Origin: a virus
Lineage: Duplodnaviria > Heunggongvirae > Uroviricota > Caudoviricetes
DNA length: 45,585 bases
Reading direction: 5' to 3' (one strand)
Virus record (IMG/VR): IMGVR_UViG_2582580752_000004
Within the stretch, counting starts at the first letter, position 1. The number at the start of each line of letters is the position of its first letter. Below the pieces are notes generated by a model. The model was not told where the DNA came from. It worked only from the letters and a program-made list of their open reading frames with translations, and did not search any database. This document shows positions 16,711 through 18,069 of the stretch, one piece after another. Both the position numbers and the translations under genes were made by a program.

Positions 16711-16872
16711 TCATTTATAACCTGAATCAGGGGGGTGCCCCTATTAAGTTGTCAAGCATGTTATGACGCCTGCGGGGTATAAAAAGTCCCGTCATTTATA
16801 ACCTGAATCAGGGGGGTGCCCCTATTAAGTTGTCAAGCATGTTATGACGCCTGCGGGGTATAAAAAGTCCCG
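16711..16872. repeat. Perfect 81-bp tandem duplication (2 copies)
   Basis: Copies at 16711-16791 and 16792-16872 read as identical; overlaps the 3' end of the IS110-family transposase ORF. Confidence 0.8.
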
Positions 16873-18069
16873 TCGCGCATCATGGCGAACAGAAAAAGTC
16901 CCGTCGCGCATCATGGCGAACAGAACGTCGCAGCGTCGTCTCGCCAGGGCGATAAGCGCCTGATTGTGTCGTTTTCCCTGACTCATTTTGCGGGTGTAGT
17001 AAGCCCTGGAGAGCGGATCCCTGAGCGCGGCGAAGGCCGACAGGAACAACGCCCGTTTGAGAGCTTTATTACCCCGTCGCGAGGGATGCTCACCGCGTAT
17101 TGACGAGCCGGATCGCCGAGTTACCGGCGCAAGGCCAGCATAAGCAGCGAGATGTGCGGCAGAGGCGAAGGCGCGGCAGGCGACCTCGGTGAGGAGTCTG
17201 GCTGCGGTCCTGACACCGACTCCGGGCATACTGGTCAGGACCGGGTAAAGAGGGTGAGCAAGAACTCGCTGTTCTACCTCAAGCGCCACCTCGTCTCTTT
17301 GCTTACGCAGCGTGATGAGCTGGAGTGCCAGACGTGGCAGTACTACGGCAGCGGCATTCGTGCCGGGAACGACGACGGTTTGTTCGGCCAGTGCCTGAGC
17401 TATGTCTGCTGCAAGGCGTTTACCCAGACGAGGCGCAAGTTTGCAGAGCTGGGCTGCCAGCTTCTTCTCACCCAGCGAAGCGAGTTTTTCTGGTGAGGGA
17501 TATCGCTGGAGAAGATCGAGTACCGCCGGGTGATCAAGTCTCGGACCGAGAACGCGCTCCAGTGCCGGATGTATCTGGGTCAGAAGGCCGCGGATACGGT
17601 TGCTGGCCTGCGTTGTCTGTGCGGCAAGATCATCATCGAAGCCGCAGAGCATGGAGAGTTCGGCGATTTGCTCGTCAGCCAGTTTCAGCGTGCGTAGCGC
17701 GTGAGGCAGGGTACGGGCAGCTTCGGCAATGATGGCAGCGTCACGAGCATCAGTTTTAGCTTCACCGGCGTGTAAGTCGGCTATGCGGCGCATGGCCAGT
17801 CCAGGGAGGTATCCGACAAGGACTCCTTCTGAGCGGGCAACGGCGACAGGTAACGCACCGATGGTAGCTGGCTGATCAACAACCAGCAGTATCTGACCAT
17901 GTTGTTTCAGGTCAGATATTAGCGACCTGAGTTTGTTTTCGTCGTTGGGTAATGCTTTATCGAACAGGCGTTTACCTGAACGATTAATGGCTACAGCGTG
18001 ATGCGTATCTTTACCGACATCAACGCCGATAAAGACCTGGACGGATTCGTAATCGCTGGATTCGGTCAT
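16825..18069 (-). CDS. IS110-family transposase/recombinase (DEDD N-terminal domain, Transposase_20 C-terminal domain)
   Basis: N-terminus VFIGVDVGKDTHHAVA...DARDAAIIAEAAR and C-terminus MPGVGVRTAARLLTEV...YYTRKMSQGKRHNQALIALARRRCDVLFAMMRDGT; the extreme C-terminus is encoded by the tandem repeats. Confidence 0.8.
   Translation of the reverse strand: MTESSDYESVQVFIGVDVGKDTHHAVAINRSGKRLFDKALPNDENKLRSLISDLKQHGQILLVVDQPATIGALPVAVARSEGVLVGYLPGLAMRRIADLHAGEAKTDARDAAIIAEAARTLPHALRTLKLADEQIAELSMLCGFDDDLAAQTTQASNRIRGLLTQIHPALERVLGPRLDHPAVLDLLQRYPSPEKLASLGEKKLAAQLCKLAPRLGKRLAADIAQALAEQTVVVPGTNAAAVVLPRLALQLITLRKQRDEVALEVEQRVLAHPLYPVLTSMPGVGVRTAARLLTEVACRAFASAAHLAAYAGLAPVTRRSGSSIRGEHPSRRGNKALKRALFLSAFAALRDPLSRAYYTRKMSQGKRHNQALIALARRRCDVLFAMMRDGTFSVRHDARRDFLYPAGVITCLTT
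16864..16925. repeat. 31-bp tandem duplication (2 copies of AAAAGTCCCGTCGCGCATCATGGCGAACAGA) abutting the 81-bp repeat
   Basis: Direct reading; shares the AAAAGTCCCG junction with the 81-bp unit. Confidence 0.75.

Follow-up and report, generated by a model that had tools for sequence, protein, structure and literature searches.

Two nested, perfect tandem duplications at the right end of an ISEc20 copy in a lambdoid prophage of Escherichia coli

What duplicated, twice and perfectly, the DNA in which an IS110-family recombinase gene ends? The question is raised by the 45,585-nucleotide stretch that was analysed here as a whole (the window; IMG/VR record IMGVR_UViG_2582580752_000004), a lambdoid prophage such as occurs in non-O157 enterohaemorrhagic E. 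coli, which carries SASA-family esterase (nanS-p-like), holin, lysozyme, terminase, head, tail and TccP2/EspF-repeat effector genes. From the sequence alone, an earlier note had described two nested perfect duplications (81 bp x2 and 31 bp x2) sharing a junction sequence at the 3' end of an IS110-family element, had regarded them as recent, and had named as possible causes the repeated action of the recombinase at its own end, slippage and an assembly artefact.

The duplications themselves are confirmed. Tandem Repeats Finder (TRF) reported a period of 81 (2.0 copies, 100% matches, 16710-16874) and a period of 31 (2.1 copies, 100% matches, 16862-16925), and a separate repeat search returned the units listed in the table, each pair at 100% identity; the first unit thus starts at 16710 and not, as the earlier note had it, at 16711. 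The layout is U(71 bp)-J(10 bp)-U-J-V(21 bp)-J-V, where J is the 10-mer AAAAAGTCCC that is common to both repeats. It occurs three times (at 16781, 16862 and 16893) and is unique otherwise in the window, and AAAAGTCCCG likewise occurs at 16782, 16863 and 16894 with no further occurrence in the window. The microhomology at the junctions is just 3 bp (GTC) for the 81-bp unit, whose repeat extends over these bases to 16874, and 2 bp (AA) for the 31-bp unit, whose repeat extends to 16925. Perfect tandem copies of 81 bp and 31 bp are far beyond what chance would produce.

Features of the duplicated locus and its surroundings. Positions are those of the window (+ strand). RE is the right end of ISEc20. 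Breakpoints are written for the ancestral sequence in the orientation of the recombinase gene, and the slash marks the point of rupture in breakpoints and the junction between neighbouring positions.
Feature	Position	Strand	Description
IS629-type IS3-family element	15228..16538	+	interrupts the 3' end of the esterase gene (SASA family, nanS-p-like)
81-bp unit, copy 1	16710..16790		20 bp of phage flank and the terminal 61 bp of ISEc20 (right end)
Phage flank in 81-bp copy 1	16710-16729		GTCATTTATAACCTGAATCA, right half of the ISEc20 target
ISEc20 right-end part of 81-bp copy 1	16730-16790		outer RE/flank junction 16729/16730
81-bp unit, copy 2	16791..16871		second RE/flank junction 16810/16811
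31-bp unit, copy 1	16862..16892		AAAAAGTCCCGTCGCGCATCATGGCGAACAG; its first 10 bp overlap the end of 81-bp copy 2
31-bp unit, copy 2	16893..16925		unit 16893-16923, then microhomology AA; inside the recombinase coding sequence
Recombinase ORF	16825..18069	-	414 aa
Left-end non-coding region with predicted bridge RNA	18070..18299	-	two conserved stem-loops
ISEc20	16730..18300	-	1571 bp = canonical 1459 bp + 81 + 31
Phage flank, left-end side of ISEc20	18300..18330		AGCCGGAATGTTATC...
Breakpoint A			GCGC/GAC GGGACTTTTT
Breakpoint B			TAAAT/GAC ACAATATC; 81 bp from A
Breakpoint C			GCGACG/TT CTGTTCGCC
Breakpoint D			GGGACTTT/TT ATACCCC; 31 bp from C

The element is ISEc20, a member of the IS110 group of the IS110 family, carried on the minus strand about 190 bp from the IS629-type element (on the opposite strand) and shortly upstream of the holin gene. 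In RefSeq, E. coli DNA that matches it bears the annotation 'IS110-like element ISEc20', with up to 39 matching places per genome. A literature search for ISEc20 as such brought nothing of use. Its ends were set by seven other copies with different flanks together with the ISEc20 features (1459 bp) annotated in the phage records LC567818 and LC567831, which also give the IS boundary inside the 81-bp unit. The element runs from its outer right end at 16730 to its left end at 18299/18300, and on the + strand these two ends read GGGGGGTGCCCC... and ...AAGTAACGGG(G), respectively. The true IS end sits 20 bp into the 81-bp unit, counted from the flank side, so that this unit straddles the boundary of the element, its 61 bp of IS sequence including the native stop codon of the recombinase gene, while the 31-bp unit lies entirely within the recombinase coding sequence. 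The location given by the earlier note is therefore right as regards the 3' end of the recombinase gene and too narrow as regards the element, since the 81-bp unit runs 20 bp into phage DNA, and the window contains two identical right-end/flank junctions 81 bp apart.

The flank at 18300..18330 and the bases 16710-16729 together rebuild the empty site of phages H-19B and 434, namely ...CCTGAATCAGGGG(A/G)GGCCGGAATG...; the empty sites of these two phages read ...CCTGAA(T/C)CAGGGG(A/G)GGCCGGAATG... and have a single G-run. On the + strand G-runs occur at both ends in all the insertions of which both junctions were read (8/8, that of the window included), and in ten insertions or empty sites the crossover falls in the G-run. 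From the G-run at both ends of the element versus the single run in the empty sites, it follows that the target of ISEc20 is a G-run (on the recombinase strand, a C-run). Insertion into a run that then flanks both ends is the behaviour expected of an IS110-type core, and a short core common to donor and target is present at both junctions, as in site-specific insertion. The left end is long (230 nt, 18070-18299) and the native right end is short (31 nt past the stop codon), which is the arrangement of the IS110 group, that of the IS1111 group being reversed (PMC11208160).

The recombinase also has the domains of its family, an N-terminal DEDD (RuvC-like) domain (PF01548, DEDD_Tnp_IS110; 7.5e-49, residues 14-168) and a C-terminal Transposase_20 domain (PF02371; 8e-22, residues 277-358), in agreement with the IS110-family assignment of the earlier note, as is the RefSeq annotation. 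Residues 1-392 are identical to those of the native 398-aa RefSeq ISEc20 transposase WP_001358663.1, and the native tail YTPQAS is exchanged for the 22-aa tail SVRHDARRDFLYPAGVITCLTT, each followed by a stop. As 31 is not a multiple of three, the reading frame shifts after residue 392 and the last six codons are affected. The native stop TAA (TTA on the + strand, 16841-16843) still lies in the second 81-bp copy, out of frame now, and the minus-strand ORF runs from 18069 to a new stop at 16827-16825 in that same copy, as had been noticed from the sequence alone. The duplications would thus have deprived the recombinase of its last 6 residues and supplied 22 unrelated ones, and should have left unaffected its catalytic domains, the left end and the predicted bridge RNA. 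An exact-protein look-up in the protein/contig index returned no record of the 414-aa product.

The left end, which lies outside the duplications, is predicted to fold into two long stem-loops. In an alignment of the left ends of 26 relatives (out of 80 related loci with 73-99% protein identity, from many genera), both stem-loops are kept, with compensatory changes in 17 of the 52 predicted pairs. The first loop, predicted to bind the target, contains CUGCCCCC, in the same sense as the left-target consensus, and GAUCCGGGGGGUG, complementary to the C-run and the right flank (GGGGGGUG being the complement of the C-run in the predicted bridge RNA). The second loop, predicted to bind the donor, contains UAAUAGGGG, in the same sense as the right end TAATAGGGG, and GUAACGUGG, complementary to the left-end start CGTTAC, which GUAACG of the predicted bridge RNA can pair with. 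The loop AUAGGG(G/A) covaries with the right end ATAGGG(G/A)CAC, the right end of the elements with the loop AUAGGGA reading ATAGGGACAC. This predicted arrangement, two stem-loops with internal loops matching target and donor, agrees with the bridge-RNA architecture of IS621 (PMC11208160), and ISEc20 would accordingly resemble the bridge-RNA-guided DEDD/serine recombinase elements, being of the same family as IS621 and having a C-run as its target. The search of Rfam gave no match to a bridge-RNA family; its sole matches were the ALIL pseudoknot of an IS3-family element and a chance sRNA.

Are the duplications a normal part of ISEc20? Several lines of evidence show that they are not. First, E. 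coli Z1323HEC0422 has ISEc20 at the same site with neither duplication, and the window from which one copy of each unit has been removed shows 0 mismatches to it over the IS and its flanks, which also means that we are dealing with pure head-to-tail duplications in which no bases were inserted or lost. Second, a search for both novel junctions as 40-mers found neither in 5,426 complete E. coli genomes; junction 1 has no match in the GTDB species-representative genomes, and junction 2 has none in the IMG/VR viral contigs or the JGI metagenome contigs. Third, the seven other ISEc20 copies each have a single right end. Fourth, TRF found no comparable tandem repeat at the 3' end in any of the 80 related elements from other genomes (0/80). 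The idea that all copies of the IS carry the repeats as their normal terminal structure, which the earlier note had kept in view, fails outright. The same data (the perfect match to the same insertion once the duplications are removed, and the absence of the junctions from the E. coli genomes) bear out its view that the events are recent, and on these sequence comparisons both duplications are recent and private to the strain. No phage record spans the duplicated region in one piece. In the L070 match, the 400 additional bases come from sequence upstream and do not reflect a duplication.

We then consider whether the recombinase itself made the duplications, its core being the C/G-run at the IS/flank boundaries. 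None of the four ancestral breakpoints (0/4) falls at the C-run core and none resembles the target, so that cutting at the donor or target core is rejected, and the comparison of the repeat junction with these cores, which the earlier note had recommended, yields no match. A scan for pseudo-targets at the junctions found nothing either, and carries little weight as the motif that it used is hypothetical and derived from the guide. Another way to double a right end, a second adjacent insertion of ISEc20 followed by a deletion, is also rejected, for it would need insertion at a site devoid of a C-run and the exact restoration of the 20 bp of flank.

A less direct role for the enzyme would be that the ISEc20 recombinase, with its bridge RNA, nicks or engages the right end or a half-matching pseudo-site, and that faulty repair or replication then duplicates the surroundings. 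Two 2026 preprints make such an involvement conceivable. Hu et al. (bioRxiv 10.64898/2026.08.14.744561) described 468 cases of tandem repeat units beside IS110 transposases, with half-matches to the donor enriched at the unit boundaries, the enriched class being the left-donor match, and Xie et al. (10.64898/2026.08.31.748434) reported that IS621 carries out recombination on half-matches as well as single-strand excision. The 81-bp unit falls within the detection limits of Hu et al. (two or more copies, each of 50 bp or longer, with an identity of 95% or higher) and covers the authentic right-end cleavage region, but a crossover at the real end predicts a unit of 61 bp, not the 81 bp seen. In the recombinase orientation J reads GGGACTTTTT, is bounded by breakpoints A and D, hence by a breakpoint of each duplication, and matches the right-donor half-site GTTACTTTAT in register at 7/10 positions. 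The empirical P value of this match at A is 0.016 per site with slack allowed, which is not significant after correction for the at least 8 comparisons made, and J simply encodes G-T-F of the DGTFY motif that is conserved at the recombinase C-terminus. Breakpoint B matches the right-donor half-site at 6/10 (P = 0.086), and breakpoints C and D match no donor half-site; B, on the flank side, and C, of the 31-bp duplication, are devoid of similarity to donor or target. The best left-donor match at any unit boundary is 5/10, so the class enriched in the preprint is unmatched at every boundary. Nothing similar was seen in the 80 relatives or in the ISEc20 copies examined, and a duplication elsewhere in the window (see below) shows that a process independent of the IS was at work. 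Taken together, we regard a recombinase trigger as very unlikely, while noting the adjacency of the J-flanking breakpoints to the right-donor-like GGGACTTTTT as a weak hint that their location is perhaps non-random.

The locus can also be compared with the expanded loci of Hu et al. (10.64898/2026.08.14.744561). The shared feature is a non-coding or terminal repeat unit, 50 bp or longer and with an identity of 95% or higher, directly beside an IS110-family recombinase gene; the differences are that there are only two copies here, without a left-donor half-match at their boundaries, that the unit includes 20 bp of host flank and that it has a companion 31-bp duplication within the coding sequence. 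That the duplications would be an in-situ snapshot of the earliest step of such an expansion is, in our opinion, highly improbable: the right end, or the pseudo-site GGGACTTTTT within the recombinase gene, would be engaged or nicked, and microhomology-mediated repair synthesis would duplicate the right-end/target junction and the coding tail, giving a second usable right end and alternative excision products.

The other duplication in the window lies about 10 kb from ISEc20, in an unrelated gene. This third private tandem duplication (468 bp x2, 27018-27968) is in frame (156 codons) within the gene of an S49 peptidase (head protease). Neither RM12761 nor the other related genomes have it: the 1401-nt query matches in two pieces that span just 933 nt, at least 80% of it being covered in 1,864 genomes. 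Two imperfect 14-15-bp repeats situated 468 bp apart, TGAGGCCGGGCTGGCGGATG and TGAGGCGCAGGCTGAAC, are fused in its internal junction, the chimeric TGAGGCCAGGCTGACGGATG. A chimeric junction of this kind is the signature of recombination and not of an overlap join. The occurrence of this duplication in an unrelated gene means either that a duplication process unrelated to the IS acted here or that the assembly is unusually prone to duplications. Along with the position of the breakpoints off the C-run core and the straddling of the IS end by the 81-bp unit, it speaks against the proposal that the repeats are scars of repeated recombinase action.

An artefact of assembly, finishing or amplification was also weighed, in which case the true DNA would have one copy of each unit. 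It could have arisen through contig joins with an untrimmed k-overlap, through local re-assembly or polishing at a repeat boundary, or through template switching of the amplification polymerase. k-mer sizes are in practice odd numbers of the 81, 31 kind, and both unit lengths are odd like them; against this, two different values of k would be required side by side, and the 45.6-kb window has no further perfect 81- or 31-bp tandem repeat, the ends of the IS629-type element and the ISEc20 left end included. The site borders on a multi-copy repeat, the kind of place at which assemblies break, but the 81-bp unit begins 20 bp outside the IS, off the boundary between repeat and unique sequence. Within this window there is neither a start at that boundary nor a recurring k, as an overlap artefact of a De Bruijn assembly would leave. 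A third private tandem duplication in the same window also suits an artefact, but for its chimeric junction. The junctions are missing from all the public collections searched, and so are the two altered proteins, the 414-aa recombinase included, of which exact-protein look-ups returned no record. On the other side, a 45-kb sequence that passes through two multi-copy IS probably comes from long reads or a finished assembly, in which perfect short artefacts are uncommon. We consider an artefact unlikely on the whole, though a rival to be taken seriously.

From these observations we lean, with a confidence slightly better than even, to the proposal that the duplications are real and microhomology-mediated, and that they were produced by replication slippage or template switching of a DNA polymerase, the site-specific chemistry of the recombinase being uninvolved. 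Slippage, understood as template switching, is also the best fit among the three causes put forward beforehand. The copies are head-to-tail, their junctions have short microhomology and no filler, and the single-copy ancestral allele exists in relatives. The ancestral state would have been U-J-V (71 + 10 + 21 bp), covering the right end of the IS with 20 bp of phage flank on one side and the final recombinase codons on the other. In the + strand direction, U-J would have been copied first, followed by a backward jump of 81 bp at GTC, the copying of U-J-V, a backward jump of 31 bp at AA and, finally, the copying of J-V, after which synthesis would have continued. The second jump would have landed 10 bp upstream of the departure point of the first, which would account for the sharing of J by the two repeats. 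The two jumps could belong to a single compound event or to two successive events; both this choice and the polymerase mechanism are deduced from the anatomy of the junctions.

This proposed path is similar to serial replication slippage and MMBIR-type events, with which the window shares direct head-to-tail copies, microhomology of 2-3 bp and the lack of filler, and the two nested jumps would fit one compound event. It differs from them in missing a stabilising hairpin and a longer repeat. Slippage promoted by a hairpin was rejected, as neither unit has a significant structure on either strand (z between -0.15 and -1.3). It is worth noting that background slippage would be expected to leave fewer private tandem duplications than the three seen in 45 kb, of which two are nested in 215 bp, and this favours a local trigger or an artefact.

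The bearing of these findings is limited, for ISEc20 is an already known IS and the change is an ordinary kind of mutation; what is described here is a mutation private to a single copy of a well-known insertion sequence, or else an error, and it matters little. As compared to canonical ISEc20, this copy is 112 bp longer, its recombinase ends in a frameshifted C-terminal tail and its right-end/flank junction is duplicated, the latter two features being found in none of the other copies examined. As a practical caution, until reads support them, neither the 414-aa 'recombinase variant' nor the 1571-bp 'ISEc20 variant' should enter catalogues as a natural isoform. Should the recombinase reading be true after all, the locus would show in nature how the growth of bridge-RNA elements begins with the duplication of an end, a topic dealt with so far in preprints only, and its doubled right end would offer a simple test of the choice of ends by the recombinase.

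The 141-bp x4.4 array at 44713-45330 was considered as a further private duplication and rejected, being the natural proline-rich repeat of TccP2/EspF-like effectors, which has an equal copy number in some genomes. The IS3-family element next to ISEc20, which we take to be IS629 from its OrfA sequence, lies outside the duplications; it contains the ALIL frameshift pseudoknot (120 bits), and its 1311 bp are 100% identical to those of an IS3-family copy in RM12761.

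ISEc20 recurrently targets the G-run located immediately upstream of a class II holin gene (...TGAATCAGGGGGGCCGGAATG...), and this site was found to be filled by the element in several chromosomal prophages, as well as in plasmid records of roughly 80-100 kb. The 9-mer GTTGTCAAG, which reads CTTGACAAC on the recombinase strand and includes TTGACA, a -35-like hexamer, is found in the right end of ISEc20 and again in the phage flank, at 28 bp from the IS. The empty sites of phages H-19B and 434 likewise carry the flank copy of this 9-mer. The match between flank and right end may be coincidental, or it may contribute to the attractiveness of the site to ISEc20.

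Features of the window discussed in this part
Feature	Window position	Strand	Remarks
Esterase gene (SASA family, nanS-p-like), truncated	13421-15256		611-aa product
IS629-type element (IS3 family)	15228-16538		
9-mer GTTGTCAAG	16694-16702, 16748-16756, 16829-16837		
Holin-upstream G-run site	16710-16735 and 18297-18320		also in the related IS110 loci L001, L003, L004 and L006
S49 peptidase/head-protease ORF	26206-28179		657 aa
TccP2/EspF-repeat effector ORF	44692-45585	minus	

In the predicted bridge RNA (window 18070-18299, minus strand; alignment A2 of the left-end region), the donor-loop segment UAAUAGGGG matches TAATAGGGG of the right end. This segment does not adjoin the crossover C-run, from which it is separated by 8 nt, and the intervening CACCCCCC shows complementarity instead to GGGGGGUG, on the target loop's 3' side. 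This predicted geometry is unlike the IS621 scheme as read here.

In the ISEc20 relative L058 (Cupriavidus laharis NZ_CAJZAI010000005.1, about 3215-3235), GTTACTA comes immediately after the right end, ...CATAGGGGCAC. These are the first bases of the element's own left end (the right-donor half-site). This junction has no C-run, and unrelated sequence comes after GTTACTA; the L058 element may have inserted at a donor-like half-site. In another ISEc20 relative, L032 (Pseudoclavibacter helvolus), a tandem repeat (34 bp x2.7, 91%) occupies positions 3260-3352, some 65 bp beyond the stop codon of the recombinase gene and probably in the flank. No other tandem array with a period longer than 16 bp was found in the 80 relatives.

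The esterase gene is cut short by the IS3-family element, which we take to be IS629 from its OrfA sequence. The identical truncated product is encoded by several E. coli genomes, including at least two O145 genomes (CP031919 and CP031349). In three places among the matches listed, the IS629-type element is directly followed by the holin gene, without ISEc20. Therefore, either ISEc20 is a later arrival in the lineage of the window, or it came via recombination between prophages.

The head-protease ORF harbors an internal, in-frame tandem duplication of 468 bp (156 codons; window 27018-27968), the junction copy of which is a chimera of two imperfect 14-15-bp repeats. The duplication is missing in RM12761 and in the remaining related E. 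coli prophages, with 1,864 genomes covering the query, and an exact-protein look-up returned no record of the 657-aa product. The effector gene, downstream of the tail-fibre gene, holds an array of 141-bp (47-aa) repeats (window 44713-45330), the copy number of which differs between related genomes, some of them matching in one piece.

In the prophage early region, the 12-bp repeat ACAGATAAAGAT occurs 5.9 times (98%; window 2984-3054), near two identical 21-mers, GCGCGTCACGAAATGTCACGC, located 270 bp apart (window 2673-2693 and 2943-2963). These 12-bp repeats and the 21-mer pair could be iteron-like or operator-like.
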